From Chrysiogenia bacterium (lineage in GTDB: Bacteria > JAGRBM01): a DNA stretch of 64,000 bases. Under the pieces are notes generated by a model that searched no databases, was not told the origin of the DNA, and saw nothing but the letters and a program-made list of their open reading frames with translations. Positions 13,168 to 64,000 of the stretch are shown here, one piece after another; positions within the stretch are counted from its first letter, which is position 1, and each line of letters begins with the position of its first letter. Both the position numbers and the translations under genes were made by a program. Location of the stretch: contig JAGRBM010000286.1 in assembly GCA_020434085.1 (NCBI GenBank), positions 1,246 to 65,245 of the forward strand, read 5' to 3'.

Positions 13168-13322
13168 TTGTCGACCTCCGCGCAGCATCCCGAATGCCCG
13201 CGCCCTCTCCCATAGCGCGCTCACGAGCGGCGGTCACTTTTTCCGTGAATTGGTTTCAGTTCCACGCTACCCTTTTAAGCATCCGACGCGACCCAGGGCT
13301 ACGGGCGCGAAGCGGAGGCGCC

Positions 13323-30163: not shown

Positions 30164-30607
30164 CTACTTTTTCTTCGGATCCCGAATCAGCAAAGTACCT
30201 TGCGCCGCACAAACCAACCGCCCCTCATTGGAAACCTCGCCCCTTACCACTGCTGTCGTCTTTGTCATCGCGATGACTTCCGCGCTGCCATCGAGAGTCC
30301 CCGTCTTCACCGGCGCAAGATAATTCAATTTGAATTCAGTCGTCGCGGCCCACTGGCCGGGTGCCATCAGCGGATAGAGTACGACTCCAAGAATATGATC
30401 CATGTAACCAGCGAGTACGCCACCATGCATGTTTCCAATAGGCGTTAGCAGCTCCTTCCGCACTGGAAGCACGGCCTTGAGCGTACCGGGGCCGAGTTCC
30501 GTCACTTCGCATCCAAGAAATTTTGGCAGCCCGGTCATGGCGTTATTGGCCGCCATAATCCCCTTGGCTATTTGTGCGTTGAATTTCTCTGAAAAGTCTG
30601 CCTTCAC
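30164..30607 (-). CDS. PaaI-type hot-dog thioesterase
   Basis: 147 aa; NMHGGVLAGYMDHILG motif typical of PaaI/4HBT thioesterases. Confidence 0.8.
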   Translation of the reverse strand: MKADFSEKFNAQIAKGIMAANNAMTGLPKFLGCEVTELGPGTLKAVLPVRKELLTPIGNMHGGVLAGYMDHILGVVLYPLMAPGQWAATTEFKLNYLAPVKTGTLDGSAEVIAMTKTTAVVRGEVSNEGRLVCAAQGTLLIRDPKKK

Positions 30608-36015: not shown

Positions 36016-36100
36016 GGTCGGATCGATACCTCGCGTGACCAGAGCCCTCCCGCTGGGCCAAGTATATCGGTTGGCTGCGGGAGCAGCGGAGATCAACATG

Positions 36101-41992: not shown

Positions 41993-43411
41993 ATGCTTCA
42001 TAACCGTGTCATCCGCAGCGTTGTTTCCGTCCTGTTTTTCACCCGTATCCTGATGAGCTACGTCTGGTTCGGGATGGTTACTCAGAAGCGCATTCCCAGA
42101 GGCCAGGGCATGCGACGCAGGGCTTTGGAATCACTGCACGAGATCAATGCAAAGAGAATGTATGGCTATTTTGTTCGCCTGAAGGGCGTATATATCAAAA
42201 TCGGCCAATTCCTCTCCACCCAGGCCGCTTTCTTGCCTCCGGCCTATCTCATTGAAATGGTCAAGATGCAGGATCAAAACCCGATCGCTCATGAGTCGGC
42301 AATTCGCACGCGAATTGTGGAGGAGTTCGGTGCACAACCAGAAGAGATCTTCGCCCGATTTGACGCCGCACCTTTGGCTTGCGCCTCGATCGGGCAGGTT
42401 CACCGTGTTCGACTCAAGGATGGGCGCCAGGCGGTTCTAAAGGTGAAATATCCCGGCATCGACCGGTTCTTTTTTGCAGACCAGAAAGTCGTAAAGCTGA
42501 TGCTGCCCTGGTTTATTCGGATTCTTGAATACGGCCTTTATCAGGAGTCCACCGGCATCAATTACAACGCGCTGATCGACGAATTCGTCAAATACATCAG
42601 CAAAGAGTTGGATTATCGCAACGAAGTACTCAATCAGGAGAGGATGTACGAACAGTTGGAGGGAATGCGCAACAGGCGTATGGTGGCCATTCCACGGCTC
42701 TACAAGGAGTATTGCCGTGACTCCATCATCTGCATGGAGTTCATTGATGCCCTGAAAATAGTGCCGTGGTATACGAACCCCAAAGTCCCCAATCAGAAGA
42801 AAGACTGGATTTTTCGGTGCATGGTCGAGTGCCTGTTCTATACCATTGCGTACCACGGCTTCTTTCAGGCTGACACGCATCCTGGCAATTTTATGGTGCT
42901 GGATGACGATCCGGAGAATCCCGATGTCCCAGCGACACTGGTGATGCTGGATTTCGGGTGCACCAAGGATTTCCCGGAAGGATTCCGCCTCGGGGTTGTC
43001 GAAGTCGTCAATGGATATCTGACGAAGATGCCCGAGAAGATCACTGCCGCGCTGTGGAAACAGGGATTTCGCACCAAGTTACAGACACTCGAATCCCTCG
43101 AATTGTGGGTAACCCAAGGCGTCGGAGTTACAGACGAGATTCTCGGATTCTTTCGGGACGGCACCGATATCGTCGAACACTTGCGCCACAACCTCGCCGA
43201 AATGGCTTCTGAATTTCTTGAACTTCACGACGCTCACCGGATCGCTGCAGTCCCGGAGCATTACGCATTGCTCGCACGCGTGATCGCTACGGCACCGGTT
43301 CCGCTTGAGGAATACATGCCGCGGGTGGATTTCCTGCCGATTGCGCTCACATATGTCAGCGTACTTGCAAGCAAGGCACGCGAGGACTCGCCTCGAGCGG
43401 CCGCATCATAG
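41993..43411 (+). CDS. ABC1/UbiB (Coq8-like) atypical protein kinase
   Basis: IKIGQFLST, ASIGQVHRVRL (Lys region), HADTHPGNFMV catalytic motif. Confidence 0.8.
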   Translation: MLHNRVIRSVVSVLFFTRILMSYVWFGMVTQKRIPRGQGMRRRALESLHEINAKRMYGYFVRLKGVYIKIGQFLSTQAAFLPPAYLIEMVKMQDQNPIAHESAIRTRIVEEFGAQPEEIFARFDAAPLACASIGQVHRVRLKDGRQAVLKVKYPGIDRFFFADQKVVKLMLPWFIRILEYGLYQESTGINYNALIDEFVKYISKELDYRNEVLNQERMYEQLEGMRNRRMVAIPRLYKEYCRDSIICMEFIDALKIVPWYTNPKVPNQKKDWIFRCMVECLFYTIAYHGFFQADTHPGNFMVLDDDPENPDVPATLVMLDFGCTKDFPEGFRLGVVEVVNGYLTKMPEKITAALWKQGFRTKLQTLESLELWVTQGVGVTDEILGFFRDGTDIVEHLRHNLAEMASEFLELHDAHRIAAVPEHYALLARVIATAPVPLEEYMPRVDFLPIALTYVSVLASKAREDSPRAAAS

Positions 43412-49049: not shown

Positions 49050-50531
49050 TCATTCCTGCGGCCATGCGCGCTGATAGGCGTATTGGCCGAAATTCGACGC
49101 TGGATCGCGGAGGATCACTTGCTGGAAGGCCTCGTTGGCCTGTTTTTTTTCCCTTTTGAGATCAAAGGCCTCTCCGAGATAAAAGTAGGTATTGACCCGG
49201 TATATCTCGTTGAATCCCTTGAATGGAAGCCCCAGTTGGGCTTCGGTGTGTGTATCGACGATTTCCAGAAGGTCTCTCAGCGCGCCGATTCCCTCGTCTA
49301 CCTGATTGAGAGGCGCCGGAAGAATCGTGTAGGCGCGTCCTTTCATGAGGAGGATTTCAAGACGGTCCTTGAGGCGCCGGGGCGTAAGTCGCAGGCTTTC
49401 CTGGAACAACTGGAGCGATTTATTTAGCCACTGGGCCGGTGAGATGACCCCACCCACCCGCGCGGCCTGCATTAAGTTGGCTATCGCGGCGTAGGCTGTG
49501 GTTCTCGCATCGTGGGGCGCGACTTTGTGCGCTTTGGCGGCCATCTGAACCGCCTCGTCCGTCCGATTAAGAAACGTATCGGCGACGGTTTTGAGTAGCA
49601 TCGCGTCGGAGTCATATTTGTCGTTTTTGAGTATCCGGGTGGCCTGTTCAGCACCCTCTTCGTAGCGCCCGATCGCGAGGTAAGCCTCGGCAAGTCGGAG
49701 CTGCAGATCACGTCTTTGCTTCGCGTCGCCGTCGCGCAGCTGGGTTTCGATCTCTTCAATCTGGGAGGGAATAGCGTGCTTTTCCAAAAATGCTTCACTG
49801 GGGATATAGATCTTCTTTCGCAGTTTTTCGACAGACAGCGGGCCTTCTTCATATGCGCGCTCGAAATGCAGCCGAAGAGCTCGTGTCTTCGCGGCTTCCA
49901 AAAATCGGTTAATGAGTGAATCGATTTCCCCCAACCGTCCCACTACTTCCCGGAAACTGGCGTCCCCGTCAATGGTGTGAATGAGGGCCTTGGATTCCTT
50001 GGTAACGACGGCTTCGATCGGGTTGAGAAGGTCAACGAAGAATTCGACGGGCAGTCCCTTGCTGTGAGCGGTCGAAACGATCCACGCGATTTTCCGTTCT
50101 TCGCCGGAGAGCGGCCCTTCGATGGCGCTGATGAGCCCGGCCTCCGCAAGGTATTTCTGCAAGTCCTCTGGTATTTCAACTTCGGCCGCGGGCTCCGTCG
50201 CCAGAACACCAACGCTGGGCGGAAGAAACCCTTTCCCCTCGGTTGCCCGCTCGAACATGTCAGCCACCAGGCTGAGTTCGAGCGCCTGGGCATCGTAGTT
50301 GCCCTGCTTGAAAAGCTGAGCGATGAAGGCCAGTGGGAGTTTCTTTTCCTTTTGTAGCTTGCGGACGAGTTCGAGAAGCTTGAGATGGTTTTCGTCGTAA
50401 AGGGCCAGTTTTTCGCGTACTTTGCGGGGCGGGGGCAGGATCCCCGCCCGCAAATAGTAGTGGATTGTTTTGCCGGCCACGCCCGCGGCATCTGCCAATT
50501 CTGAAAGTTTAAATTGTTTCTTTTTCGCCAT
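49050..50531 (-). CDS. MerR-family HTH transcriptional regulator fused to a long helical/TPR-like domain
   Basis: N-terminal FKLSELADAAGVAGKTIHYYLRAGIL MerR HTH; 493 aa, with alpha-helical repeats in the rest. Confidence 0.7.
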   Translation of the reverse strand: MAKKKQFKLSELADAAGVAGKTIHYYLRAGILPPPRKVREKLALYDENHLKLLELVRKLQKEKKLPLAFIAQLFKQGNYDAQALELSLVADMFERATEGKGFLPPSVGVLATEPAAEVEIPEDLQKYLAEAGLISAIEGPLSGEERKIAWIVSTAHSKGLPVEFFVDLLNPIEAVVTKESKALIHTIDGDASFREVVGRLGEIDSLINRFLEAAKTRALRLHFERAYEEGPLSVEKLRKKIYIPSEAFLEKHAIPSQIEEIETQLRDGDAKQRRDLQLRLAEAYLAIGRYEEGAEQATRILKNDKYDSDAMLLKTVADTFLNRTDEAVQMAAKAHKVAPHDARTTAYAAIANLMQAARVGGVISPAQWLNKSLQLFQESLRLTPRRLKDRLEILLMKGRAYTILPAPLNQVDEGIGALRDLLEIVDTHTEAQLGLPFKGFNEIYRVNTYFYLGEAFDLKREKKQANEAFQQVILRDPASNFGQYAYQRAWPQE

Positions 50532-50605
50532 GGCCTCAAAAATACCACGAGTTCAAATAGTTATGATGCGCGCCCGGTCCCTTGCCCCGTGCAGTATAAT
50601 CCAGC

Positions 50606-50638
50606 CCTTGACGGCGAATCAAGGATAGTGTTTACTAT
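50606..50638 (+). promoter_or_regulatory. MerR-type promoter: TTGACG -35 and TACTAT -10 with a 19-bp spacer, overlapped by the inverted repeat CCTTGA-N7-TCAAGG
   Basis: Read directly; lies between the divergent merR-like gene and diiron paralog 5. Confidence 0.5.
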
Positions 50639-50714
50639 ATTTGTAGTCGGATGGGCGTTTTCCGGGGTCTTTCCCGGAGTGCCTCAATGGATACGGAGCA
50701 AAGGAGCGACTCTT

Positions 50715-51647
50715 ATGGCGGAGCTAGTTCAAAGAGCAACTCGTGAGCAACTTACCAAGGTGGATGCCAGTGACAACATTTACAAGGTGGACCTGTGGCT
50801 CAAGACGGCACCGCAGGGCTATCTCGTCAAGACCCGTTACGGAAAATACGAGGACCGGCCAATCGAAGAGAATCCCCTCCTTTTTGAAGAAGGGGATCTG
50901 CGGGACCAGCAGCTGATGACCCTCGCTCATTTCGTGGTGGGGGAGCGGGCGGCCCTCCTCTCGGCAGCGGGCTGTATTCCCCGTGAGCCTGACCATGCGG
51001 CGCGGGCGTTTCTCTCGACCCAGACGGCTGATGAGGGGCGGCATGTGGAGGTCTTCTCCCAGCGCCTCTTCGACCTGGGGGTAACCAGGGAACAGTTTGA
51101 GGACTTTCTCGACAGCTGGACCAATCCCTATCTCAAAAAGTTTTGCCTTGCCCTCGAAGACCTCGTCAAGAATGGCGATTACGTCGCTGCCATCGTTTGC
51201 AACAATATCATTCTGGAGGGGCTCGCTTTCAGCGTCTTTGAGTTCTCCCGCGGGATAAGCCAATTCATGGATCCCGTTGGCGAGCAGGTGCTCTGCGGCG
51301 TCATCGCCGACGAGCGTCGGCACGTCGGTTTTGGGGAAAATCATCTTGCAAAACTCGTGGCCCGTTTTCCCGAAAGCAAGCGTAAAATCGAGAATGCCCA
51401 GAAGGAACTGTCCGGGTTCATGATGGCCAGCTTCAAGAGCATGCTCAGCAAGTTTGGATCAGTTATGAATCGGACGATCGGCGAATACAAAGAAGTTCTT
51501 GGCGATTTCGAGCCGTATCCGGGAATCAAGCTTGGTCGCTCGAACTCCGAAGATCTGATGGGCGCAATGTGGACCAAGATGGAGCGGGAGTTCAAAGACC
51601 GTCTCACCCGGATCGGCGTGGATTACCAAGAGCCGTACCAGAATTAG
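50715..51647 (+). CDS. Ferritin-like diiron-carboxylate protein, paralog 5 (310 aa)
   Basis: ATG at 50715 with an AAGGAG RBS; GERAAL...TADEGRHVEVF and EGLAFSV...ADERRHVGFG motifs. Confidence 0.7.
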   Translation: MAELVQRATREQLTKVDASDNIYKVDLWLKTAPQGYLVKTRYGKYEDRPIEENPLLFEEGDLRDQQLMTLAHFVVGERAALLSAAGCIPREPDHAARAFLSTQTADEGRHVEVFSQRLFDLGVTREQFEDFLDSWTNPYLKKFCLALEDLVKNGDYVAAIVCNNIILEGLAFSVFEFSRGISQFMDPVGEQVLCGVIADERRHVGFGENHLAKLVARFPESKRKIENAQKELSGFMMASFKSMLSKFGSVMNRTIGEYKEVLGDFEPYPGIKLGRSNSEDLMGAMWTKMEREFKDRLTRIGVDYQEPYQN

Positions 51648-51708: not shown

Positions 51709-53781
51709 ATGTCCCAGGATATCAGCACAAAAGCGCGGAGCCACAAGCACCCGCTGAAAATTGCGCCGCCTAAGAAGATCCCTGTCCATGTCGGCGAAGA
51801 CGCCGATGAGACCGTTACCTTGGAAGGCCTGGCCCCCCACGTTGAACTCCCCGAGGGACTGGCGTTCGATAAGTCGAAGTTTGATTCGGTTGGGACGGGA
51901 GCCGGCCATCCCCCCCTGAAGGTGCCTCCGCCGCCAAGGCCCAAGGCCGCCAAGCGTCCGCCCCTGTCTCCCCCGGCTGCCTCACCATCCGCTTCGGACA
52001 CAGCACATGACGGAGAAGAAGAGGTCATCATTGAGCAGCGTCGTCCGAAGGAAAAGAAGGTTGTAGGCGGTCGCCTGCAGAATCCAGACGCACTGGCCCG
52101 GCTGGAACCACCCGATTTCTCCGCAATTCCGCCGGATCCTGAGGTACACGTCCCCTCCAGACTCCGGGCAGATCCGCAGCGGCTCGTGGAAATTGCGCGT
52201 GTGCTATTCCGCCACGGCCTCGGGTTTCCCCTGGAATGCGTCCGGGGCAGGAACTCGCGCAAGGCCCTTGCCCGGCGGTTGCGCCTGGCTTTTGAAGAGC
52301 TGGGTCCGACCTTTATCAAGCTGGGGCAGATGGTGGCGTCGAGTCCCGGAATTTTCCCAAGGGAAGTATCCGATGAATTCCTCAAATGCCTCGATAAGGT
52401 CCCCGCGTTTCGGTTTTCGGAAGTAAAACGCATTCTTGGGGACGAGCTCGGACCCGGTTGGGAGGCCCGATTTCAGAAGATCGAGGCCGTTCCGGTTGCT
52501 GCCGCAAGCATCGCCCAGGTCCACTTCGCCGAATTGGCCGACGGCACGCCTGTCGTCATCAAAGTGCAGCGACCGGGCATTCAAAAGGTCATTGAGCGGG
52601 ATCTCGGAATTCTGTTTTTGCTGGCGAAAGGGCTTGTGCGTGCCTTCGAAAATGCCCATCTGGCCAATCCGGTGGGAATCGTCTCGGATTTCAATCAGAC
52701 GCTGCATGAGGAACTCGACTTCCGACTGGAAGCCAACAGCATGGAGCGGTTCAATGCGGTGTTTTCCTCTGCTGGAGACAAGCGCATCTATGCGGCCCAA
52801 GTGTACCGCGAACTTACCACGAAACGCATCTTGGTGATGGAGCGGCTACATGGCGCCCGGGTGGACGACCTCGATTCGATTCGAAATCTTGGTGTGGACC
52901 CTGAAGACGCTCTCCGCCTCGGAATCAAGGCAGTTCTTCGTACGATGATGTTGCATGGATTTTTCCATGGCGATGTGCATGCGGGCAATCTCCTCATCAC
53001 CGCAGATGCCGGCGTCCATTTCATGGATTTCGGAATCGTCGGCAGGCTCGACGACGAGCGAAGTAAACGCGTCACTCACCTTCTGGTTTCGCTCATGGCG
53101 GGCACTTTCGAGAACCTGGCCGACGTGCTCATGAAGCTGGGTACTACAAATGCAAAGACCGACCGGATTCAGCTGAAGGATGATCTGAAGAACCTGCTGG
53201 GACAGTTCAAGGACACGGCGCTTGGTGCGCTCAACTTCGGAGACCTGCTGACCGCCGTCGTCAAAGCAGCCGTACGGAACCATGTGCGCCTTCCGCGAGA
53301 GTTCGTTCTACTGGTGAAACAGATAGTTTACTTCGACCGCTACGCCCACGTTCTTGCTCCCGATCTGAATATATTCGACGACCGTTTCTTGATCGATTTC
53401 CTGTGGCGTGACCCGCTGGGTCGAAAACGATTTCCGCAGATGCAGATGATCGGCATGCTTGGAAATGTCCGCTCCATCAAGGATCTTCGCAATAATCGCC
53501 GGCGCTCTTTCGACGAGCTTCCGGAGCGGTACAGGGGGAAATACCGATACTGGGATGGCTCTCCCCTTCAGCCCAATGAGCTCCAGTGCGTTGTCTGCAA
53601 CATCATCGTGATTGCCAAACGCCCGTTTCAGGTCGGAGACAGGGTGTTCTGTCAACCCTGCGGCACCAAAATGGTGGTGATCGAGAAGGAAGGAAAACTC
53701 ACGGCCGAACCGATTTATTCCCAAGAAGCGCAGGCATCCTTCCGGATAACAGAGGGTTTGCAGGAATTCGCGCCGATCTGA
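51709..53781 (+). CDS. ABC1/UbiB (Coq8-like) kinase with a Pro-rich N-terminal extension and a C-terminal Cys-rich (zinc-ribbon-like) tail
   Basis: [35 protein letters not shown]1 motifs; C-terminal CVVCN...CQPCG. Confidence 0.8.
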
Positions 53782-53808: not shown

Positions 53809-54684
53809 ATGCTTGATCTGGAATCGCTGCTGGAGAAGTCCCACGCGGGTCAGTGGTCGGTCGCTGATTTCGATTGGGAAACGCCGTTTCCACCGGGGCT
53901 GCCGATCAGTGAGCGCAAGCGCCAGCTGCTGGGAAGAGTCCTGCTTTTCACTGCAGGGGTTGAACGTTTGGGCGCCTACGCATTTCAGATTAACGCCCGG
54001 AACTCGATGCACCCGACCGTCCGGGAGCTCTTCGAGGTCATCGCAAAAGATGAGTTCCGGCACGCGGAGGCTGAGACTCTTCTGGCGAGACGGCTGGGGG
54101 TCGAATGGAAAGATCTGCCGTGGCTCATGCGCCGGGCCTTCAAGGTGCTCTCGCACGACCTGCGGAAACTGAAGGGAGTACGAGGTCGCCTCTTCCACGA
54201 AATCGTGGGGACCCAGATCGTCCTGTTCGAACTTGGACTCGATTCGCTTTGGAGTCCGACGGTCCGGGAGATGATTGACGATCCGTTCCAGAACGAGATT
54301 ATCCGCATGATCGACCGCGATGAATCACGGCATCTGGCCATGGACTACTGGTTGCTCGAACAGAAGGGCACGGGTACTGACCGCACTTCGCTCAATGCGC
54401 GGCGAATTCTAGCCAACCTTCCCTTGCGCCTTTCGTCGGCAGCACTGGGAGCGGGCGCATTCCTGACGTTTTTCTGGAGTGTCCGGAACCTCGAAATCTC
54501 ACCCGAACGATTTGATGACTACTGGACTCGCGTACAGGCAATCGTCGACAAATCGCCGCACGCGCGCAGATTTCCGCCGCATCGCACGACGGTGGGTCTG
54601 ATAGACGCACTTGTGAACTTTTTCGACGGAAATAAGGCAGCATTCAAGGGATTTATGCTTCTGGTGACAGGACGAAATATTTAG
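53809..54684 (+). CDS. Ferritin-like diiron-carboxylate protein, paralog 6 (291 aa; group A)
   Basis: GQWSVADFDW; AKDEFRHAEAE; DRDESRHLAMDYWLL. Confidence 0.7.
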   Translation: MLDLESLLEKSHAGQWSVADFDWETPFPPGLPISERKRQLLGRVLLFTAGVERLGAYAFQINARNSMHPTVRELFEVIAKDEFRHAEAETLLARRLGVEWKDLPWLMRRAFKVLSHDLRKLKGVRGRLFHEIVGTQIVLFELGLDSLWSPTVREMIDDPFQNEIIRMIDRDESRHLAMDYWLLEQKGTGTDRTSLNARRILANLPLRLSSAALGAGAFLTFFWSVRNLEISPERFDDYWTRVQAIVDKSPHARRFPPHRTTVGLIDALVNFFDGNKAAFKGFMLLVTGRNI

Positions 54685-54693
54685 ACGGAGGAA

Positions 54694-55431
54694 TTGTCCA
54701 TGCGTACCGACAGCGATCTTTACGCGATCAGGCCCGGGCAGGCGCTCGATGCCGCCATAAAGGGAATGAAAAATCCTGATGATACCAAGCAGGCTGCGCG
54801 GATGGTTGAGGCATTGCAGGGAAGATCTCCTCTGCGCATGCTTCAGCGCGTCAAGCGCAGCAGCAAGGGGCGCCGCCTGCTGCAGGAAAGGCCCGATCTG
54901 CTCTCGGCGCTCAAGGACGCCAAGTGGTTGGCTTCCCTGCCCGAGGGTACCTTGGGCCGTGAGTATTACGAGTTTTGCCAGCGCGAGCAGCTCACCCCCG
55001 GAGGACTGGATGAAGCCGTGGCCGAGGGGTTTGATCGTTCACGTCTGGAGCGCATGAGCGAGGACGAGCAGTTTCTGCAGACGTGGATGCGTGATACGCA
55101 CGACCTCTACCACGTGTTGACAGGTTACGGAACCGATCTGCTCGGAGAATTGGGCGTCCTGACCTTTACCGCGACACAGACCAGGAATCCGGCAATCTGG
55201 TTCATGGTGCTCGTAGGTGGAACGGTGTTTGCGGCCAGAGGGCATGCGAACCCGAGGCTGTTTGCGGGCGCAATCTGGCGGGGGCTCCGCGCGCGCTCGA
55301 TCATCACGCCGAATTGGAAGAGGCTTCTTGAACAGCCCTTGTCGCAGATTCGCCGGGAACTGCGCGTCCCCCAGCCCCCGCGATACAAACCGGCCTACAC
55401 AAGCCTGGACCGGTCGGCGATGCAGCTATAG
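54694..55431 (+). CDS. Coq4-family protein (ubiquinone-biosynthesis Coq4-like)
   Basis: HDLYHVLTGYGTDLLGE matches the Coq4 zinc motif HDxxH-x11-E. Confidence 0.65.
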   Translation: MSMRTDSDLYAIRPGQALDAAIKGMKNPDDTKQAARMVEALQGRSPLRMLQRVKRSSKGRRLLQERPDLLSALKDAKWLASLPEGTLGREYYEFCQREQLTPGGLDEAVAEGFDRSRLERMSEDEQFLQTWMRDTHDLYHVLTGYGTDLLGELGVLTFTATQTRNPAIWFMVLVGGTVFAARGHANPRLFAGAIWRGLRARSIITPNWKRLLEQPLSQIRRELRVPQPPRYKPAYTSLDRSAMQL

Positions 55432-55434
55432 CCG

Positions 55435-56699
55435 TTGGTGGAAGGGGGACTCATGCCGCCATTTAATCCGCTCGTCGTATTCACTAAAAATGATCGCTTT
55501 GCCGAATACCGGCGGGCGAGGGCCGAATGTCCGGTGAGTCAGTCACGGCTTCTACCGATGTGGAACGTGATGTGCTACGACGATTGTGTGCGCGTGCTCA
55601 GAGACCCCGAACATTTTGCTTCCAGTCCGCGTGTTGCATTCGAGCGAAAGGCGCAAGGTGCCAAGGGCCTGACCGGGGCGCTCGATATGGCACAGGTGTT
55701 CGAATTACTGCCGCCGATGATGCAGCACATGATGGTGGCGACCGCCCCCCCGATCACCAGCGCTTGCGTTCACTCGTTACAAAGGCATTTACGCCCCGCA
55801 TGATCACGCAGCTCGAACCCAGAATCTCTGAACTGTCCGACGAACTGTTCGATGAGATCGAGAAGAAAGATAAGTTCGACCTAATGGAGGATTTTGCCAT
55901 TCCGCTTCCCATCTACGTGATCGCGGAGATTCTGGGAATCGATCCCCACATGTGCCATCAATTCAAGGACTGGTCGAACAAGATGGTGCTCGACCCGACA
56001 GCAAATATTTTCCTGAATGCCGGCAAGCCGATGGATATGGATTGGCTTGAAGAGTTTACAGACTATTTCGGTCGCCTCTTCGAGGAGCGACGCAAGCGGC
56101 CGATGGGAGATCTGATCAGTCAGCTGGTGAAGCTTGAAGATGCCGGGGATCGGCTGTCCGGTGACGAACTTCTTGCCATGTGCGGCATTCTTCTGGTCGC
56201 GGGGAACGAAACTACAACCAATTGGCTCGGCAATGCGCTTGTTGCTCTGACGGAGTCCCCAGAAGCTTTGAGGGAGCTTGAGCAGGATCCCTCGCTGATC
56301 CCCTGTGCGATGGAAGAAGTCCTCCGGTTTTACTCGCCGGTGCAGTGCCTGTTTCGATTTGCGAAAGAAGGCGCGAAGATCGGTGACCGTGAGATCCCGC
56401 CGGGCGAGGGCGTGCTGGTCTGGATTCAGTCGGCGCACCGGGACGAGGCGGTTTTCGATCAGCCTGATTCGTTCGACATCCACCGCGATCCCAATCCTCA
56501 TATCGCATTCGGCAGCGGCATCCATTTTTGTCTGGGCGCCCCGCTTGCGCGACTGGAAGCGAAGATCGGGATGGAGAAACTGCTTGGCAGACTGCCCGGC
56601 ATCGTGCGTGCGAGTGAAAACCCGGTACGATATCGCAAATCGATCATGCTTTATGGGCCCGACCGCGTGGACCTCGCCTCCAAGCAAAGAGCAGCGTAG
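55435..56699 (+). pseudogene. Cytochrome P450 interrupted by a -1/+1 frameshift at a C7 homopolymer (55745..55751)
   Basis: The N-terminal 100 aa (PPFNPLV...MMQHMMV) sit in frame 1 and the rest in frame 3: DPPDHQRLRSLV, I-helix AGNETT, EEVLRF, heme loop FGSGIHFCLGAPLA. Adding one C restores a continuous P450. Confidence 0.75.
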
Positions 56700-56897: not shown

Positions 56898-58262
56898 TCA
56901 AAAACTCCAGCGCATTTCCGCGAACGCCGTCGTATTGTCTTCCAGAAAGCCGAATTGGGAGATGTTTTCGCCCTTGTAGATTTCTCCGCCGACCGTGGCC
57001 TTCCATTCATCCGTCAGGTCATAGGTCAGTTTGGGCCGGAGAAACCAGTTGGTTCTCTCGAAGTTGATGACATAGGTCAGATCGAGGTCGAGAGTATCGT
57101 TCCACCACTTCTTGTTGAATCGCACGGATACACCGTTTTGCCATGTGTCCAACTGACTTGTGAACAAGGCGTTGTATTGGGCCAACTGATCATCCGGGCG
57201 CCCCAACACCGTCTCGTACTTATGGAACACCCTTCTTCCATAGTACTGGACGATCAGGTTGGTGCTGTTCCCAAAGTCCTTTTCAATGCCAAGAACATAA
57301 AAAGCGTAGGGGGTTTGGATGTCCCTGCGCCGGCCTTTGGAATTCTTCGTATGAACGTACGCACCTTCCCCCCGAAACCCCCAGCTCCCGTGGATATACA
57401 CGAAATCCGCTCCCGCACCGTGTATACGGTGGTGCGAAAGTTCGACAACCGTCACCGGCGGAGGCGGGACGATCAGATTTACTTCCGGCAGTTTGTTGAA
57501 GCCCGTAAAATAGCTCACGGACCACTCAATATCTCCGCCGGACTGGTCCAGTTTGAAACCGAACTCGCCGTTTTCGATTTCCACATCCGGAGGCTGCTGC
57601 TGAAAGGATATTCCAGGAACCGAGGGAAGCGGAATCACGCTGGCTGTTGGCACCGGCTGCCAGACGCCTGTCACGCGGAAGCCCTTGGGAAGATAGTAGT
57701 CGGCTTTGACGCCGAAGACGCCGATTCGCTGATCGAAAGGGTCCGGAAAGAGAAGCGTCAGATTTCTCGCCGAGAGCCAGTCGGTGGGATTGATCTCATC
57801 GGCACGGCCCCAAACAATGATCTGCTTTCCGACCCGGAGTTCCAGGTCCCCGGCATAGACGTCGACATAGCCCTCGCGCAACTCCAACGTGACCTCTTCG
57901 TAGAGAGTCTGCGTTCGCCCATCCCAATGGTTTGGCGTGGTTGAGTGATTCAGGTCTTGCGCCATCACCCGAGCCTCGCCATAGAGCCTGACGTGATCGC
58001 CAAATCCGGGCTCCGACCTAAGAACAAGATTGAGGCCGGGAAAATGCCGATTCTTGGTTAGGGATTTGTCCGAACTAAAATAATCAAAAGCCGCATAACC
58101 GTGGATCCCTGCTTGCTTGACGGGGTTCCATAGTTTCATGAACGGGGTTTCACGGCCCTCTGGAATCGGACCCGGGCCGTCCTCTGCCGCTGCGGCGGTC
58201 GGGAGGGAGGCAAGAATGATTCCAAGAAAGAGCAGATTGCGAAAATGAAACGTCGTCCGCAT
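56898..58262 (-). CDS. Outer-membrane beta-barrel protein (DUF1302-like?) in the exporter operon
   Basis: Signal peptide MRTTFHFRNLLFLGIILASLPTAAAA; C-terminal ...EMRWSF; ATG at 58262 is 4 nt after the upstream stop. Confidence 0.55.
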   Translation of the reverse strand: MRTTFHFRNLLFLGIILASLPTAAAAEDGPGPIPEGRETPFMKLWNPVKQAGIHGYAAFDYFSSDKSLTKNRHFPGLNLVLRSEPGFGDHVRLYGEARVMAQDLNHSTTPNHWDGRTQTLYEEVTLELREGYVDVYAGDLELRVGKQIIVWGRADEINPTDWLSARNLTLLFPDPFDQRIGVFGVKADYYLPKGFRVTGVWQPVPTASVIPLPSVPGISFQQQPPDVEIENGEFGFKLDQSGGDIEWSVSYFTGFNKLPEVNLIVPPPPVTVVELSHHRIHGAGADFVYIHGSWGFRGEGAYVHTKNSKGRRRDIQTPYAFYVLGIEKDFGNSTNLIVQYYGRRVFHKYETVLGRPDDQLAQYNALFTSQLDTWQNGVSVRFNKKWWNDTLDLDLTYVINFERTNWFLRPKLTYDLTDEWKATVGGEIYKGENISQFGFLEDNTTAFAEMRWSF

Positions 58263-58266
58263 GTTT

Positions 58267-59106
58267 CTAGCGCTTGAGATAACGTTCGCTGAACGTGTAT
58301 TCCGGGACGCCCACATTTACCTTGATCTCATCGAAAGAAATTTCCGTGACTCCTCCTGTCTGCAAATTTTTCATTCGAAGCGACTTCGCCATCCAGCGAC
58401 CGAGCTTGGGGTCCGCCTCGAAAAGGTCGCTCGCGCCAAACTCTTTCAGAGGGCGCCCTGCAAGGTCGGCGTATTCACCTTTAACGGTCATGTAATTGTC
58501 AGTCCGGATCCACTGGATTTTCTTCCCGTAGCCGGTGTTGCGTTTTACTTCTTCCGACACAGGAGTGGACTCGACCACGTAACAATTGTGCTCGCCACAC
58601 GGCTCGGTCTTCACAAGCGTGTGATTCCAGTCCTCCACCCGCGGGGTGATCACGTCTCCGTAGGAGAAGTCCGATCCCATGAAACTGTCCCGCTTGTTCG
58701 ACGCTACCAGCCTCCGGACCTTTTTGAGGGCTGGAAGGTAAACCCAGATATCGTCGTCTCCTCCCGAGTGTTCCCGGGTCAGGGTCGCCGTGCCGCGCAC
58801 GTCCGGAGGGCTCAGGAATTTCGCCACGCGCTCCTGGTCGATCCCGTTGGGAAGGAGTCTGGAGAAGGACTCGGCTTTGCGCTCGCGCCGGATCCCCCTC
58901 GAATCAATGAGTACCATGGTCATTCTGGACTCGGAATCGGTGAGCTTTCCGACCATGAAGTTCTTCTTCATGATCTCGATGACGTCGGGTGGCCCGGCGC
59001 TTTCGACAGCTTCCTCCCCATGAGCCGGAAGACTCATGGAAACGGCAAACCCAATGCCGAGGACAATCATTACCGTTCTAAAATTATGCATTGCATACCT
59101 CCTCAT
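58267..59106 (-). CDS. LolA-like outer-membrane lipoprotein-sorting family protein
   Basis: Signal peptide; 279 aa; LolA-like fold signature (DIWVYLPALKKVRRL); GGAGG RBS before the ATG at 59106. Confidence 0.55.
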   Translation of the reverse strand: MRRYAMHNFRTVMIVLGIGFAVSMSLPAHGEEAVESAGPPDVIEIMKKNFMVGKLTDSESRMTMVLIDSRGIRRERKAESFSRLLPNGIDQERVAKFLSPPDVRGTATLTREHSGGDDDIWVYLPALKKVRRLVASNKRDSFMGSDFSYGDVITPRVEDWNHTLVKTEPCGEHNCYVVESTPVSEEVKRNTGYGKKIQWIRTDNYMTVKGEYADLAGRPLKEFGASDLFEADPKLGRWMAKSLRMKNLQTGGVTEISFDEIKVNVGVPEYTFSERYLKR

Positions 59107-59124
59107 AGCAGCAAGACCTCCGGT

Positions 59125-61470
59125 TTATTGGTCCTTCTGCGGTTTCAGAAAAAATGCCTTCGGCCGCACGTGTTTGATCAATGCCGGGAGAACCGTGATC
59201 GCTCCCAGGGAACTGATGACCATCGCCAACGCCACCAGAAGGCCCAATTTCCGGTGGAACCCAAACGGTGAGAGCGCCAGGCAGAGATAACCCGCGGTAA
59301 TCGCGCTGGACACAAAAAATACCGCCTTGCCCGAAGTGCGCATGGTGGTGAGCAGAGCTTCGTCGAAATTCTGATTCTTGCGGAGTTCCTCCTTAAGACG
59401 GAAGATAAAATAAAGGGCGTAATCAGCACCGATTCCCACAGCCATGGGCAGGATGGCCGAAGTTCCTATATCCAGATTGGCGCGGAAAAATCCCAGGGCC
59501 GCAAACTCCCCGAATACTGAAAGGATGAGCGGGACGGTTACAAGCAGGCCCGCGACGAGTGAACGCAGGACAAGCGAAGCCAGAACAACCACTATGAGCC
59601 AGATCTGGACGATGTTGCGGATCTTGCCTTCCACCATGACGTGGTTGAGCGCGTCGGCCGAGGCCACCGAGCCGGCGATCTTGACCTCATAGCCGGGCGG
59701 AAAATGCTTGGGGATGTAATCCCGTACTTTTCGAATGATCTCGTCAGCGACTGCCGTGTTGTCCTTCTTCATGAAGGTCTGGATGATCGCCTTATCATAG
59801 GTTTTGGTCACGTACGCATCAAAATCATCCGGTCCCCCGGAGATGGAATACAGAAAAAGGTATTGGGCAATGAGTTCCTGCGAGTCGGGAATTCTCTCGA
59901 ATTCGGGATCATCGGCATTCATCGCTTTGTTCATTTTCTTGAGGAAATCGACGATGGAGAGCGTCTTGCCGACGGCTTCCTGTTCTCCAAGGAGATCCTG
60001 CAGGCCCTCCATGCTCCTGAGAACTTCGGGGTTCTTGAGTTTATCTGGTTCCTTGCCGTCGATGACGAAGAGAAGATTGTTGGTTCCCGCAAACCGGTCA
60101 TTCAGCCAGGTGTCGTCTTGGTAAAACTGGTCCTTGGGGCTGAAATAGGGCTTGAGGCTGTTGTCTATCTTTACCATGGACGTGCCGTAGCCCCATGCGC
60201 CGAGGGCCACCACCGTCGCTCCAATGATGGCTTTGCTGCCGGAACCGCTTACATAGGGTGCAAGCCATTCGAGCGCCCCGTCGAGATATTTTCTTTCGAC
60301 CGACTCGGCCTGCGCCTCCTTTTGCTTCGGTGCGGGCAGCATCGCCCGCAGGGCCGGAATCATCGTCATTTCGATGACCAGGACCGAAAGAATGCCGAAA
60401 CCGGTGAAGAGCCCAAACGTGCGGATGGTCGTGGTCTGGAAGGTCATGAGCGAAAAAAAGGCGAGCGCGGCGATAATGCCCGTGGTCAGCATGACGGTTC
60501 CCACCTTGACGGTAGACTCGATCACCGCCTTGCGATTGTCCTGATAAACGGCATATTCCTCGTAATAGCGCTTGAGTATCTGAACGGCGTGCCCGGCTCC
60601 CACGGCCAGGATCAGAATGGGCGTGGTGGCGTTGAAGGGATCGAGAGCGACGCCCACGATCCCCATCAAGCCAAGTCCCCACACGACCGCCAGCAGGGCC
60701 GTCAACAACGGAAGAAACAACCCCTGGAGAGTGCGGAATGCCTCGAAATGAACAAGCCCGATAACGATGACGGCAATGATAAAATAGATGGCCATTCGTT
60801 CCGAGTATTTCGCCATCCACGATGCGGCCACTGGGAAACCCGAATAATGAATTTCTACCGAGTCATCCAGCTCGCTCTGCACGATTTCTTCAACCACCTT
60901 ATGGATCGAGGGAAAATCAGGCAGCTCCCGATTGAAGCGGAAATCGGCCAGAATCGCGGCCGTCTTCCCGTCCTTGGAATAGATCGAATTGGCAAACAGC
61001 GGATTCCGAAAGAGCTTATCCTTGAGTTCCTGCATCTCCCGTTCGGTAGCCGGCACTGTTTCCATGAACGGAGTCACAATCATCCCGTCTTCGGTCCCCA
61101 GAATATCCTTTGCCCGATTTGCGGAGATGGAAAGAACGTTGGCCCGGATGATTCCGGGAACCAGAAGTAGTTTGTCGGTAATTTGTTGGATTTTCTCAAG
61201 AACAATGGGCTGAAAAATATCGCCCTGCTTCGGTGCGATTCCAATCACTACAATGTTTTTCCCGCCAAAAATATCGTCGATTTCGTTTTGGGCCTGGATG
61301 TACGGGTGGCCCTGGGGAAGATTTTTGTCCGGGTCTACTTCGACATGGAGATTCCCGAGATTTGCACCCAGATAGACCGAAATCACGCCCAATATGACCA
61401 TCACTGCAACGCGATACCGGACAATCGCCTCAACATAGGATCGCAACATTATTGGTGCTCCTTTTTCCAA
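59125..61470 (-). CDS. RND-superfamily MMPL-type exporter
   Basis: 781 aa; two 6-TM bundles with large periplasmic loops; typical MMPL/RND-exporter layout. Confidence 0.85.
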   Translation of the reverse strand: MEKGAPIMLRSYVEAIVRYRVAVMVILGVISVYLGANLGNLHVEVDPDKNLPQGHPYIQAQNEIDDIFGGKNIVVIGIAPKQGDIFQPIVLEKIQQITDKLLLVPGIIRANVLSISANRAKDILGTEDGMIVTPFMETVPATEREMQELKDKLFRNPLFANSIYSKDGKTAAILADFRFNRELPDFPSIHKVVEEIVQSELDDSVEIHYSGFPVAASWMAKYSERMAIYFIIAVIVIGLVHFEAFRTLQGLFLPLLTALLAVVWGLGLMGIVGVALDPFNATTPILILAVGAGHAVQILKRYYEEYAVYQDNRKAVIESTVKVGTVMLTTGIIAALAFFSLMTFQTTTIRTFGLFTGFGILSVLVIEMTMIPALRAMLPAPKQKEAQAESVERKYLDGALEWLAPYVSGSGSKAIIGATVVALGAWGYGTSMVKIDNSLKPYFSPKDQFYQDDTWLNDRFAGTNNLLFVIDGKEPDKLKNPEVLRSMEGLQDLLGEQEAVGKTLSIVDFLKKMNKAMNADDPEFERIPDSQELIAQYLFLYSISGGPDDFDAYVTKTYDKAIIQTFMKKDNTAVADEIIRKVRDYIPKHFPPGYEVKIAGSVASADALNHVMVEGKIRNIVQIWLIVVVLASLVLRSLVAGLLVTVPLILSVFGEFAALGFFRANLDIGTSAILPMAVGIGADYALYFIFRLKEELRKNQNFDEALLTTMRTSGKAVFFVSSAITAGYLCLALSPFGFHRKLGLLVALAMVISSLGAITVLPALIKHVRPKAFFLKPQKDQ

Positions 61471-61485
61471 TTCCGTATTCGCTCA

Positions 61486-62112
61486 TTAGTGATCGGGGAG
61501 TGGGGATCCGCAGAAAAGCCGGAGTGTTGTTTCTACGAGAACATCAACGGGGCGTGGCTCAGGCCGCTGAACCTCCATGGTCAGGAGCGCATTCAGAATC
61601 CCGCTGAGCTTGAGCGCCAACTCTTCACCCGTAGCCCCCACAAACTCGCCCGATGCCAGGCCGCTCTCAAAGGTCTCTACGAGCCCGGTCTGGTAACGAT
61701 GGTACTTCGCCAGTACGCCCCGCCCGAACTGCGCCTGGAGGCGCATTTCAAAGCCGAGAGTCTCATTGACGAAGAGTTTCAGTAGCAGGGGGTTCTCCTC
61801 AAAATAGGAGAGTTGTTCACGGACTGCATTCTCAATCCTTTGCCGGGCCCCGTCCGCCCCCCCCAACGCGGCCTCTACCCGGTCCAGGAGTTCGGCGAGG
61901 TGCTGGTCAAGCATTTCCTGATAAAGCGCTTCCTTGCTTGAGAAATGGAGATAGAGCTTTCCTACGGAAAACTCGGCCGATTGGGCTACGTCCCGCATGG
62001 TGGCCGTGTGGAAGCCCTTTTCAACGAAAACCTGCATGGCGGCATTCAGTATGTCCCTGCGGTGGCGGGCTTCCTCGGCTTCCTGACGCGCTTTGCTGGC
62101 ATAGCGAGGCAT
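61486..62112 (-). CDS. TetR/AcrR-family transcriptional regulator
   Basis: N-terminal HTH RRDILNAAMQVFVEKGFHTATMRDVAQSAEFSVGKLYLHF; 15 nt upstream of the MMPL gene. Confidence 0.85.
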   Translation of the reverse strand: MPRYASKARQEAEEARHRRDILNAAMQVFVEKGFHTATMRDVAQSAEFSVGKLYLHFSSKEALYQEMLDQHLAELLDRVEAALGGADGARQRIENAVREQLSYFEENPLLLKLFVNETLGFEMRLQAQFGRGVLAKYHRYQTGLVETFESGLASGEFVGATGEELALKLSGILNALLTMEVQRPEPRPVDVLVETTLRLFCGSPLPDH

Positions 62113-63087
62113 TCGTCAATATTATGAACATTGATTCATCATGTCAATAGGTATTCATATTAGCGAAACCTTCGGCTAGGATGGAAGGAGCCATAGCCAA
62201 GTTATTGGAGTTACATGCAAATTCCGCTACCGTTCGAATTTCGGTCGATCAGACATATCAATCAAGCAAACCTGAGGGCTCCGCGCAGGAGATGACCGCG
62301 CGTGAAACCTCTTCGCGAGTGAGCTCTCGGACCGCAGCCGGGCGACTTGTCCGGGTTCGCGCTGCTCGAACCGAACCCGAGCCGTTCCGAGCCGACGTTC
62401 GAACCGAATGGGCCGCACGCGGACCGCGCACGAGCGGGCGGAAAATTTTACCAGGCCGCGCGCGTTCCGATCCCGCATTTCCCAGCGCCGCGCCCGAGTG
62501 GCACCCGAAATCCCTCGTGCGGCAAGCGCTCCGCACGCGTACCGGAGGTTCTAGCACTCCAGCGCACCTCGCCGGGCCCCGTCGTGGTGGACGAAATGAG
62601 TTCGGAGGGGGCAAATCCCATTCCGGCAAGGGAACTGTGCAAGCGCGGTTCGCACAATGTTTAGCACGGTGCAAGGCCGAGCATTCCGGTTCGCGACGCA
62701 CATGCGGTGAGAACCCGAACCCGGCATGGCTGGAAGGTGTTACCTATGTTAGGGATCGGACAACAGTCCACCACAGGGCCACCACGGAAGTGCCTAATTT
62801 TATTGAAAGATTAGCGAAGTGGTGGAGATGGTGGAGCTAGACGTGACGCGCCGGCGCGAAATTTAGCGGCAGGGAAGCACGCGCGTACAAACTACCGTTT
62901 TCCACGTGAGCCCACGCAAGGGATATTTTTGTTCACCCCCGCGCGGCGCATTCTTGGGGCATGGCTACCCCGCTCCCAGTGCCGCAGTTCGAATTCTCGC
63001 GCGAAGAGATCGCCGCGCTGGCGGAGGTTTTCGCGCTGCTGCTAGAATGGGACGCGGAGGAGCGGGCGCACAAGCCCGCACAAAGCC

Positions 63088-64000
63088 ATGAACAACCAAT
63101 CCCTGAGTGCGACTGATCTTCCTTCCTGGCTCGGCGCGAGCCGCAGGGCCGTGGGCATCGTCCGCGTCTCTTCCCACAAGCAAGGCGACGGGAATTCCCC
63201 CGATGTGCAACGCGCGGGAATCGAGCGCTACGCCACGAGTCTTGGACTTGATCTGACCGGCATTGAGATCATTGAGGAATCGGCGAAGAGCTCATCAAGC
63301 CGGAAGAAATTCCACGAGGCCATGGCTCGCGCCAGACGAAAGCGCGTCCGGCACCTCGTCTTCTGGGTCTGGGACCGCATCGCCCGAAACTATACCGACG
63401 TCGAGAAGCTTGAGGAACAGGTCCGCGACGATCTCTTCGTCCTGCACGTCGCCAACGAGCGGCGCGTACTTCACGCGCTCAGCACCGATTCCGAGTGGCT
63501 GACAGCCGATGTGAACACGCTCACGAGCAAACACTATTCGAGAGAGCTTCGACGCCGGGCCATCGAGAGCATGGCCGAGAAGGCCCGGGCCGGGTGGTTC
63601 CCCATGAAGGCACCGCTCGGATATCGCAATGCCAAGGCTCGCACCGCCGGAGGCGGGATCAAGGACCGCGGCGGCACCATCGAGACGGTTCCCGAGCAGA
63701 AAGCACTCGTCCGCCGCATGGCGGCGCTACGGATCGATGGCTACAGCCTCGACCGGATTGCGACAAAGGTGCTCGAAGAAGGCCTCGTGCCCCGCTCCCA
63801 TGAACGGGGTTTCAAAGGCCCCGGCGCGGTTTCCAGGGTCGAGAGCATCCTCAAGAATCCCTTTTACCGGGGCGAGTTTCTCTGGCGCGGCGACGTCTAC
63901 GAAGGAAGGCACGAAGCCTTCTTCACCCAGTCCGAATGGGAAGCCCTGCAGGCGACATTCGGGACAATCCCGGCGCATACCAAGCGCACCCGCCATTCCG
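63088..64000 (+). CDS. Large serine recombinase (partial; continues past the window end)
   Basis: Hand translation of frame 1 gives VGIVRVSSHKQ (catalytic Ser), VFWVWDRIARN, GWFPMKAPLGYR, ILKNPFYRGEF, which are resolvase plus recombinase-domain hallmarks; no stop before 64000. Confidence 0.75.
   Translation, partial: MNNQSLSATDLPSWLGASRRAVGIVRVSSHKQGDGNSPDVQRAGIERYATSLGLDLTGIEIIEESAKSSSSRKKFHEAMARARRKRVRHLVFWVWDRIARNYTDVEKLEEQVRDDLFVLHVANERRVLHALSTDSEWLTADVNTLTSKHYSRELRRRAIESMAEKARAGWFPMKAPLGYRNAKARTAGGGIKDRGGTIETVPEQKALVRRMAALRIDGYSLDRIATKVLEEGLVPRSHERGFKGPGAVSRVESILKNPFYRGEFLWRGDVYEGRHEAFFTQSEWEALQATFGTIPAHTKRTRHS

Follow-up and report, generated by a model that had tools for sequence, protein, structure and literature searches.

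Here we show that four genes at positions 56898-62112 of a 64,000-nt stretch of Chrysiogenia bacterium DNA (JAGRBM010000286.1, positions 1,246 to 65,245, assembly GCA_020434085.1; the whole stretch is called the window below) form a genuine operon of a widespread envelope transporter kind, of which the locus is an ordinary added example. The operon encodes a TetR-family repressor, an inner-membrane transporter of the resistance-nodulation-division (RND) type, a periplasmic LolA-like protein and an outer-membrane beta-barrel. Its order is kept far beyond chance: across a set of 81 loci, the LolA-like gene is followed by a barrel homologue in 78 and preceded by an RND homologue in 69. We propose, giving the reading an even chance of being right, that the cassette is a TetR-controlled three-part exporter of hydrophobic or amphiphilic small molecules, which would pass outward from the pump to the LolA-like protein and on to the barrel.

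All four genes lie on the minus strand in the same direction, behind a putative regulatory block:

62119..62162 (-), candidate promoter/operator block upstream of tetR (consensus scan, inverted repeat, conservation)
61486..62112 (-), TetR-family repressor, 208 aa (PF00440)
59125..61449 (-), HAE3-type RND inner-membrane transporter, 774 aa (MMPL twice, TIGR00921)
58267..59106 (-), periplasmic LolA-like (PF17131 / TP_0789-like) protein, 279 aa (PF17131)
56898..58262 (-), outer-membrane beta-barrel, 454 aa, short divergent DUF1302-type (PF06980)

The intergenic gaps are 36 nt (tetR/RND), 18 nt and 4 nt, the first shrinking to 15 nt if TTG 61470 is taken as the RND start. The most likely start of the RND gene is ATG 61449, since it has an AAGGAG ribosome-binding site 8 nt upstream and gene calling done independently on the Logan copy of this locus yields the same 774-aa product; TTG 61470 (781 aa) is less likely. 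The barrel gene begins at ATG 58262 (MRTTF...), 4 nt past the LolA-like stop codon, and has no Shine-Dalgarno sequence, which suggests that its translation is coupled to that of the LolA-like gene. A consensus scan found no terminator after the barrel gene, and the 200-nt convergent spacer past it folds no better than shuffled sequences (z = 0.73). A preliminary description of this DNA had placed a TetR, an MMPL-type RND, a LolA-like protein and an outer-membrane protein on one strand at spacings of 4-18 nt; Pfam and NCBIfam scans and the coordinates bear out all four identities and the two shorter gaps, but not the spacing between tetR and the RND gene.

The conservation of the cassette was followed from the LolA-like protein as anchor, in a pattern-limited scan of one genome per species that found at least 356 relatives. 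Eighty loci from other genomes were kept which, with the Logan copy of the window locus, make up the set of 81. The 80 are carried by environmental metagenome-assembled genomes (MAGs) from many phyla and lineages, including Bdellovibrionota, Binatia, Rokubacteria, Nitrospinota, Nitrospirota, Burkholderiales, Gallionellaceae, Polyangiaceae and Gemmatimonadota, among others. Two of the three exceptions to the pairing of LolA-like and barrel genes are cut by contig ends. All-against-all clustering of the flanking open reading frames (ORFs) found no other neighbor family in more than 11 of the 80 loci, and the largest clusters derive from one synteny-conserved clade without an adjacent RND gene. 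Some loci are elaborated: in two from Nitrospirota (L065, 2501-9968; L068, 194-9962), two or three tandem RND paralogues precede a single LolA-like/barrel pair, and two complete cassettes occur in each of two MAGs (L003 and L004 in one, L010 and L011 in another). Such tandem pumps and double cassettes suggest diversification by substrate.

In 34 of the 81 loci the RND and LolA-like proteins are encoded as a single ORF of ~1050-1100 aa, with the LolA-like part fused at the RND C-terminus, and independent gene callers likewise place PF17131 on 36 of the 120 top RND homologues. Fused and split forms interleave on a neighbor-joining tree of the pump, implying at least four fusion or fission events. 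Every fusion linker has a basic n-region, an h-region and an AxA-type c-region just before the LolA-like domain, a layout that matches the signal peptide of the window's own LolA-like protein. The linker lies at about residues 790-825 of the fused ORFs (L017, L019-L021, L023, L024, L028, L029 and 26 other loci). Judged from its sequence, it would fit an N-in/C-out 13th helix, the topology required to bring the LolA-like domain out from the pump's cytoplasmic C-terminal end and place it in the periplasm; the same features suggest an internal signal peptide, possibly cleaved by signal peptidase so as to free the carrier. We take the fusions as evidence for physical coupling of pump and carrier.

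The pump itself matches the Pfam MMPL family (PF03176) in two stretches (E 1.6e-56) and also hits Sterol-sensing and Patched SSD. Among NCBIfam models HAE3 (TIGR00921, E 1.4e-68) scores best, with 231.7 bits under a curated cut-off of 351.9, and several homologues 48-49% identical to the pump carry the JGI label "HAE3 family protein"; "HAE3-type" is a description of kind here, not of strict membership (TC 2.A.6.7). The pump falls short of the models for mycobacterial MmpL transporters (HAE2), at 185.6 bits against 874.7 for TIGR00833 and 49.4 against 1400 for the MmpL3 model. The HpnN model gives 119 bits (cut-off 752), and a resemblance to BstA emerges from the same NCBIfam scan. A sequence search of the PDB gives MmpL4/5, HpnN and MmpL3 as best matches (E 1e-12 to 1e-14), which extend over the C-terminal transmembrane bundle alone (residues ~550-775). 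The earlier "MMPL-type" label is thus apt for the Pfam domain, but the protein is an HAE3-type RND and not a mycobacterial MmpL.

Hydropathy gives the pump a 1+5 / 1+5 layout of transmembrane segments (TM) with two periplasmic loops of ~185 aa each: TM1, a ~185-aa loop, TM2-6, the second loop and TM8-12, with TM7 under the threshold used. Two motifs are invariant across 57 homologues, G-H287-A-V-Q290 in TM4 and G-A-D676-Y677-x-x-Y680 in TM10, and the positions of His287 and Asp676-Tyr677 are compatible with a proton relay.

The LolA-like protein matches PF17131 with E 2.5e-57, and DUF1329 (PF07044) weakly, at 29.3 bits (gathering threshold 23.1) over one 64-residue stretch. As read from the translation, it has a signal peptide ending A-H-G, followed by EE, and no lipobox cysteine. 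A profile of the family retrieves LolA3 of Porphyromonas gingivalis from the PDB (9TP6, E 9e-55), and also 3BK5, 4Z48 and 3BUU. In Foldseek, the AlphaFold2 (AF2) model (mean predicted local distance difference test, pLDDT, 86) superposes on 9TP6 with a template modeling score (TM-score) of 0.90 at 36% identity, which makes LolA3 a clear homologue. TM-scores to the LolA3/3BK5/4Z48 subgroup, all hydrophobic-groove proteins, are 0.86-0.90; the entry 4Z48, a close structural relative of the model, is labelled DUF1329. Canonical LolA and LolB are found with probability 1.0 but TM-scores of just 0.5-0.6, and RseB and LprG are also distant.

The database name "lipoprotein-sorting protein" is misleading for this family, since LolA3 binds LolB very weakly and lacks the signature residues of both LolA and LolB (PMC13103446). 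The positions at issue, read on LolA3, are the Arg of LolA in the beta2-beta3 loop and the Leu of LolB in the beta3-beta4 loop. What was described before as a lipoprotein-sorting fold therefore stands as a LolA/LolB fold, but not as a part of the Lol pathway.

The barrel matches DUF1302 (PF06980) at 31.7 bits against a gathering threshold of 23.2, covering profile positions 133-541, and many of its homologues carry the same family. Its translation begins with a signal peptide (...TAAAA, followed by ED) and ends in a C-terminal Phe. The barrel sequence has no match in the PDB, so its fold is taken from an AF2 model (48 sequences; pLDDT 86, predicted TM-score, pTM, 0.81), in which ~18 strands form an Occ/AlgE-like barrel; the nearest folds are the Occ/OprD uptake channels, and the model is neither TolC-like, having no TolC-type tunnel, nor FadL-like. 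An Occ/AlgE-like fold of DUF1302 has likewise been published by an independent study (PMC13499233). One locus (L089, 9146-11431) has neither pump nor LolA-like gene: a barrel homologue of 59% identity comes straight after a TetR gene there, next to an esterase and a TonB/ExbBD/XusB cluster, and the barrel is apparently able to be deployed alone.

The regulator carries a TetR_N domain (PF00440, E 1.1e-16 in a Pfam scan). Its nearest named NCBIfam models, all scored far under their cut-offs, are FasR (1e-18), Bacillus FadR, MtrR, KstR and AcrR, which are lipid-responsive or efflux repressors. Upstream of tetR, a consensus scan finds a sigma-70-like promoter with 10 of 12 consensus matches: -35 TTGACA (62147-62142), a 17-nt spacer and -10 TAATAT (62124-62119). 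An inverted repeat, ATGAA-N6-TTCAT (62139-62124), lies within the spacer and the -10 element, and there is an outer pair of repeats, TAATATGAA (62162-62154) and TTCATAATA (62128-62120), with ATGAA/TTCAT half-sites located inside and around the spacer; a TetR_N domain and a palindrome inside its own promoter are thus both present at the window locus. A block of ~45 nt comprising these elements is kept before tetR in six loci, namely the window and L002, L003, L004, L005 and L083, whose proteins are 62-95% identical to those of the window. It is the sole part of the upstream regions that aligns, the flanking DNA being unalignable. From this conservation, we infer that 62119-62162 is a putative TetR operator. 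The tetR ATG lies just 6 nt past the -10 element (window 62112-62124) and has no Shine-Dalgarno sequence; given this spacing, the operon transcript may be leaderless.

A TetR gene stands directly upstream of the RND gene in 10 of the 48 loci with room for one, and TetR was for that reason rejected as a core component of the cassette.

The operon sits at the edge of a lower-GC block (0.55) that runs from ~18 to 62 kb of the window, the GC content outside being 0.60-0.66. This island holds three class-B flavin monooxygenases, hydrolases, an aldehyde dehydrogenase, short-chain dehydrogenases/reductases (SDRs), acyl-CoA dehydrogenases, an acyl-CoA ligase, an SCP-x-type thiolase, ferritin-like di-iron proteins, two ABC1/UbiB kinases, Coq4 and a cytochrome P450. 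In relatives at 62-76% identity, the cassette lies near parts of the same set, rearranged: a P450 gene is convergent after the barrel in L003 and L005, two Baeyer-Villiger monooxygenases (BVMOs) and an SDR are near the cassette in L004, genes for MBL, DUF2505, MerR-TPR, di-iron, ABC1 and Coq4 proteins are near it in L083/L084, and Coq4 is divergent from tetR in L088. The closest copy, in a Bdellovibrionota MAG (L002), has proteins ~90-95% identical to those of the window and shares the four genes alone. One flank has a lipase-like hydrolase and a LysR gene, the other has genes for a flavoprotein, a TPR protein and a CDP-alcohol phosphatidyltransferase, and the GC content of the cassette is 0.53-0.55 against 0.61-0.64 in the flanks. 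Because L002 shares only the four genes, among unrelated neighbors and again at lower GC, the four genes are a portable, compositionally distinct cassette, and the link to oxidation genes is real in one lineage but not defining.

Several neighbors were recorded individually:

30604-31500 (-), 35014-36099 (-), 50514-51647 (+) and 53809-54684 (+), ferritin-like di-iron paralogues (three or four, with ExxH motifs)
41993-43411 and 51709-53781 (+), two ABC1/UbiB kinases
54694-55431 (+), Coq4 homologue
13194-13820 (+), DUF2505 protein

The set resembles coenzyme-Q synthesis accessory proteins, and Coq4 is beside the cassette in L084 and L088 as well. The P450 gene (55435-56699, +), convergent with the barrel gene, is split in two frames: an ORF at 55435-55803 encodes the N-terminal part, and the main one spans 55527-56699. 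If the C7 run at 55745-55751 were one C longer, ...MMVATAPPDHQRLRSLVTKAFTPR..., a motif normal for P450s, would be recovered. The Logan contig (L001) has this C7 run as well, and the split reflects either a homopolymer sequencing error or a real pseudogene. On the other side of the operon, ~1.6 kb past tetR (62113-63700) holds no convincing ORF; a 219-aa ORF at 62181-62840 is Arg/Ala-rich with no Pfam match. The GC content climbs from 0.54 to 0.63 across this interval, which is the edge of the island. The only known-RNA match around the unit is a sub-threshold BjrC68 (23 bits against a gathering threshold of 39), and the window has no tRNA that could mark a site of integration.

Systems with related parts have been studied in several bacteria. 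The closest with genetic data is AmeABCD of Castellaniella defragrans, which combines a DUF1302 barrel, a DUF1329 protein of the LolA superfamily, a BNR/Ycf48-like protein and an HAE3 RND; deletion of ameABCD lowers tolerance of monoterpene hydrocarbons and raises the accumulation of Nile Red (PMC6394551). Genes of these four families also show cofitness in Shewanella, Kangiella and Pseudomonas (10.1101/072470), and Pseudomonas putida needs PP_0765/0766 and PP_2018/2019 to grow with Tween 20 or butyl stearate (10.1101/2020.07.04.188060, PMC10866462), where AlphaFold co-folding suggested binding of the DUF1329 protein to either the barrel or the BNR-RND pair (PMC10866462). The window cassette shares with the AmeABCD type a ~780-aa HAE3-type RND, a LolA-superfamily periplasmic protein, a DUF1302-type barrel, the absence of HlyD and TolC components, and a frequent location in islands for hydrophobic-substrate metabolism; its likeness to AmeABCD and PP_0765/0766 was judged by Pfam families and the architecture described in those papers. 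Unlike the AmeABCD type, it has a short PF17131 carrier (279 aa against ~450 aa for DUF1329), a barrel of 454 rather than 540-605 aa with a partial match to the DUF1302 profile, and a TetR rather than a LuxR regulator. No BNR/PSII_BNR family (Ycf48-like, COG4447) was found by Pfam among the ~50 window ORFs of at least 180 aa, nor within related cassettes. The window cassette is a three-part variant of the DUF1302/DUF1329/BNR/RND systems, a variant already seen, uncharacterized, in Thalassolituus and Porphyromonas.

In Thalassolituus oleivorans, TOL_3187, which joins two MMPL domains to a LolA-like one, is 42-fold up on n-C28, on which alone the adjacent porin-like gene TOL_3188 is expressed and where a BVMO and an esterase are induced too (PMC6304351). 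This architecture, with its porin-like gene devoid of Pfam domains, equals the fused form of the 34 loci, and the window island likewise holds BVMO- and esterase-type enzymes; unlike TOL_3187, the window pump and carrier are separate genes with a TetR gene before them. The proposal of the same authors that the pump exports the porin (PMC6304351) we judge unlikely. In P. gingivalis, PG1181 (TetR), PG1180 (MMPL), PG1179 (LolA3) and PG1178 form one transcription unit autoregulated by the TetR protein (PMC11018363); expression of the unit rises 13- to 136-fold under iron limitation and strongly with nitric oxide (NO) (PMC10434189, PMC11018363). As compared by description, the order of the window genes is the same: TetR, MMPL/RND, LolA-like, hypothetical protein. 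The three copies in Prevotella intermedia differ from the window in having two ATP-binding cassette (ABC) ATPase genes inside the operon (PMC10434189, PMC11018363).

More distant comparisons are instructive as well. HpnN and MmpL3/4/5 share with the window pump the small-loop RND form and the conserved Asp-Tyr in TM10, and their systems move lipids from the inner membrane to periplasmic acceptors, among whose partners LprG has a distantly LolA-like fold; unlike the window cassette, they have no dedicated barrel gene and a carrier neither fused nor adjacent, and sequence similarity is low. The AcrAB-TolC (HAE1) type resembles it as a TetR-controlled RND operon with an outer-membrane component and possible efflux of hydrophobes, but the cassette has no HlyD-family membrane-fusion protein and no TolC-family outer-membrane factor, its RND loops measure ~185 rather than ~300 aa, and its barrel is Occ/AlgE-like. 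With no membrane-fusion protein, no TolC tunnel and short RND loops, a continuous duct is not expected.

In the export mechanism that we propose, the HAE3-type RND would be the proton-driven inner-membrane component, with its sterol-sensing-like domain and short periplasmic loops, and would hand cargo to the secreted LolA-like protein at its hydrophobic groove. The loaded LolA-like protein would then dock on the monomeric ~18-strand Occ/AlgE-like barrel, which would move the cargo across or into the outer membrane. The cargo may be a long-chain aliphatic or isoprenoid compound, or oxidation intermediates of it, sent outward as relief or export. TetR bound to the promoter palindrome would probably hold expression off until build-up of a hydrophobic ligand releases it. 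The order of hand-off, the proton coupling, the direction and the cargo are what we infer from the evidence set out here. The LolA-like protein is cast as the bridge between an energized pump and a passive barrel because of its constant pairing with the barrel and its recurrent fusion to the pump, and hand-off by a soluble carrier is preferred because there is no HlyD-type adaptor gene and no TolC-type tunnel. All characterized bacterial HAE2/HAE3 relatives (MmpL3/4/5, HpnN) are, to our knowledge, exporters, and TetR-controlled RND operons are typically efflux systems; with the action of AmeABCD as an exporter, these points favor the outward direction. A hydrophobic cargo is suggested by the n-C28 induction of TOL_3187/3188 and by the oxidation enzymes of the window island, of which the class-B flavin monooxygenases, hydrolases, aldehyde dehydrogenase, SDRs and acyl-CoA dehydrogenases were counted toward it.

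The preliminary description had pictured hydrophobic molecules crossing the envelope by way of a LolA-like carrier and a barrel, and this picture agrees with the AmeABCD, P. putida and T. oleivorans systems and is supported by the RND-LolA-like fusions in 34 of 81 loci. It had also taken the substrates or products of the adjacent oxidation enzymes as possible cargo, which the clade at 62-76% identity upholds, but not the unrelated neighbors of L002 or the ceiling of 11 in 80 loci on any neighbor family. Its four-gene unit holds across genomes as a LolA-like/barrel/RND core, but not in its TetR, adjacent in just 10 of 48. The idea was to fall if the unit occurred in genomes lacking lipid-oxidation genes and served an unrelated function; such findings exist in part, in L002 and in the low-iron/NO stimulon of P. 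gingivalis (PMC10434189, PMC11018363).

Several points weigh against the export mechanism. Nothing in the sequence fixes the direction of transport. The induction of the Thalassolituus genes by C28, which is non-toxic, fits uptake or export of a surfactant better than detoxification, and the inability of P. putida mutants to use Tween 20 and butyl stearate likewise looks like a defect of uptake (10.1101/2020.07.04.188060, PMC10866462). What induces the P. gingivalis unit is iron limitation and NO rather than hydrocarbons (PMC10434189, PMC11018363). TOL_3187/3188 and PG1178 are linked to the window proteins by described architecture only, the HAE3 score of the pump is below its cut-off (231.7 against 351.9 bits), and the proposed contacts among RND, LolA-like protein and barrel would follow by analogy from the gene fusions and from published AlphaFold-Multimer work on DUF1302/DUF1329. 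In addition, 11 loci of a Binatia/"delta" clade carry the LolA-like/barrel pair without an adjacent RND gene. There the pair lies divergently beside genes for a beta-propeller-like lipoprotein, an Lnt-like protein and HpnH-like proteins. The lipoprotein (L082, 8443-9888, minus strand, and at the same position in L085 and L086) has ~480 aa, a lipobox LSAC and propeller-like repeats with no Pfam match, and might correspond to the BNR protein of AmeABCD; the other adjoining genes encode an Lnt-like N-acyltransferase, an AAA/peptidoglycan-binding protein and an HpnH-like radical SAM protein.

The most serious alternative, although we consider it unlikely, runs the route inward as an uptake machine of the NPC1/NPC2 kind: the barrel would admit a poorly soluble substrate (long-chain alkane, ketone, ester or isoprenoid), the LolA-like protein would ferry it across the periplasm, and the RND, by way of its sterol-sensing-like domain, would insert it into the inner membrane for the P450, BVMO and beta-oxidation enzymes of the island. 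NPC1, of the RND superfamily, takes cholesterol from the soluble NPC2 and moves it into the membrane. The window pump matches the Sterol-sensing and Patched SSD families, and a beta-rich, soluble carrier of lipids would serve an RND protein here as it does there; this likeness is one of analogy, since NPC2 is not LolA-like, NPC1 acts inward and homology is limited to the RND core. The resemblance of the barrel to Occ/OprD uptake channels, the persistence of close-clade cassettes near P450, BVMO or Coq4/ABC1 genes, the induction of TOL_3187/3188 on a non-toxic alkane (PMC6304351) and the dependence of P. putida on its related genes for growth with Tween 20 or butyl stearate (10.1101/2020.07.04.188060; PMC10866462) all speak for uptake. 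Against it, most homologous cassettes have no catabolic neighbors and the 90-95% identical L002 cassette sits among unrelated genes. We know of no bacterial RND with demonstrated import, RND operons under TetR control typically serve efflux, and the AmeABCD data point to export and tolerance (PMC6394551). Doubtful, too, is a specific form of this uptake route in which the carrier is in many lineages made as the C-terminus of the pump and freed by signal peptidase at the internal signal peptide. If true, the uptake route would be the first RND-driven nutrient import in bacteria.

It is improbable that the cassette is instead an envelope-biogenesis exporter, delivering an endogenous lipid (hopanoid-like, quinone-like or other) constitutively to the outer membrane in the manner of HpnN or MmpL3. 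Price et al. proposed export of a cell-wall component from the pleiotropic cofitness of the four related genes (10.1101/072470), the pump is similar to HpnN and BstA, RND-less LolA-like/barrel pairs lie near HpnH-like, polyprenyl synthase and Lnt-like genes, and Coq4 recurs beside the cassette. Repressor control, a GC content under that of the flanks in both genomes examined, two copies in some genomes (L003/L004; L010/L011) and a varying genomic context argue instead for an accessory inducible function rather than core envelope assembly.

A lipophilic cargo related to iron or heme, which would be suggested by analogy with siderophore export through MmpL4/5 and with the low-iron units of Porphyromonas and Prevotella, seems very improbable. 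The siderophore exporters MmpL4 and MmpL5 are the best PDB matches of the pump, and PG1175-81 and the three Prevotella copies rise 13- to 223-fold in iron limitation, co-regulated with hmuY (PMC10434189, PMC11018363), but the pump resembles MmpL4/5 weakly (E ~1e-14) and in the common transmembrane bundle only, no iron, heme, siderophore or TonB family was matched among the scanned window ORFs of at least 180 aa, and the regulator is a TetR with its own putative operator, not of the Fur type. Finally, a genuine Lol lipoprotein-sorting role, for which the LolA/LolB superfamily fold and the NCBI/JGI annotation "outer membrane lipoprotein-sorting protein" would speak, is close to negligible, given an RND partner with no LolCDE-type ABC transporter in the unit, the missing LolA Arg and LolB Leu signatures and very weak LolB binding of the homologue LolA3 (PMC13103446), and TM-scores of just 0.5-0.6 to canonical LolA and LolB.

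The window locus is a well-delimited, portable four-gene unit, useful mainly for heterologous tests. The constant LolA-like/barrel pair, the frequent pump-carrier fusions, the linkers with a signal-peptidase-like site and the conserved putative operator together give a testable architecture, of which the fusion and linker pattern and the putative operator are the most useful by-products. From a broader standpoint, this type of cassette is common in environmental bacteria and occurs in degraders of hydrocarbons as well as in iron-stressed oral pathogens, and it bears on the question of how hydrophobic molecules pass across the periplasm outside the Lol, Lpt and Mla systems.

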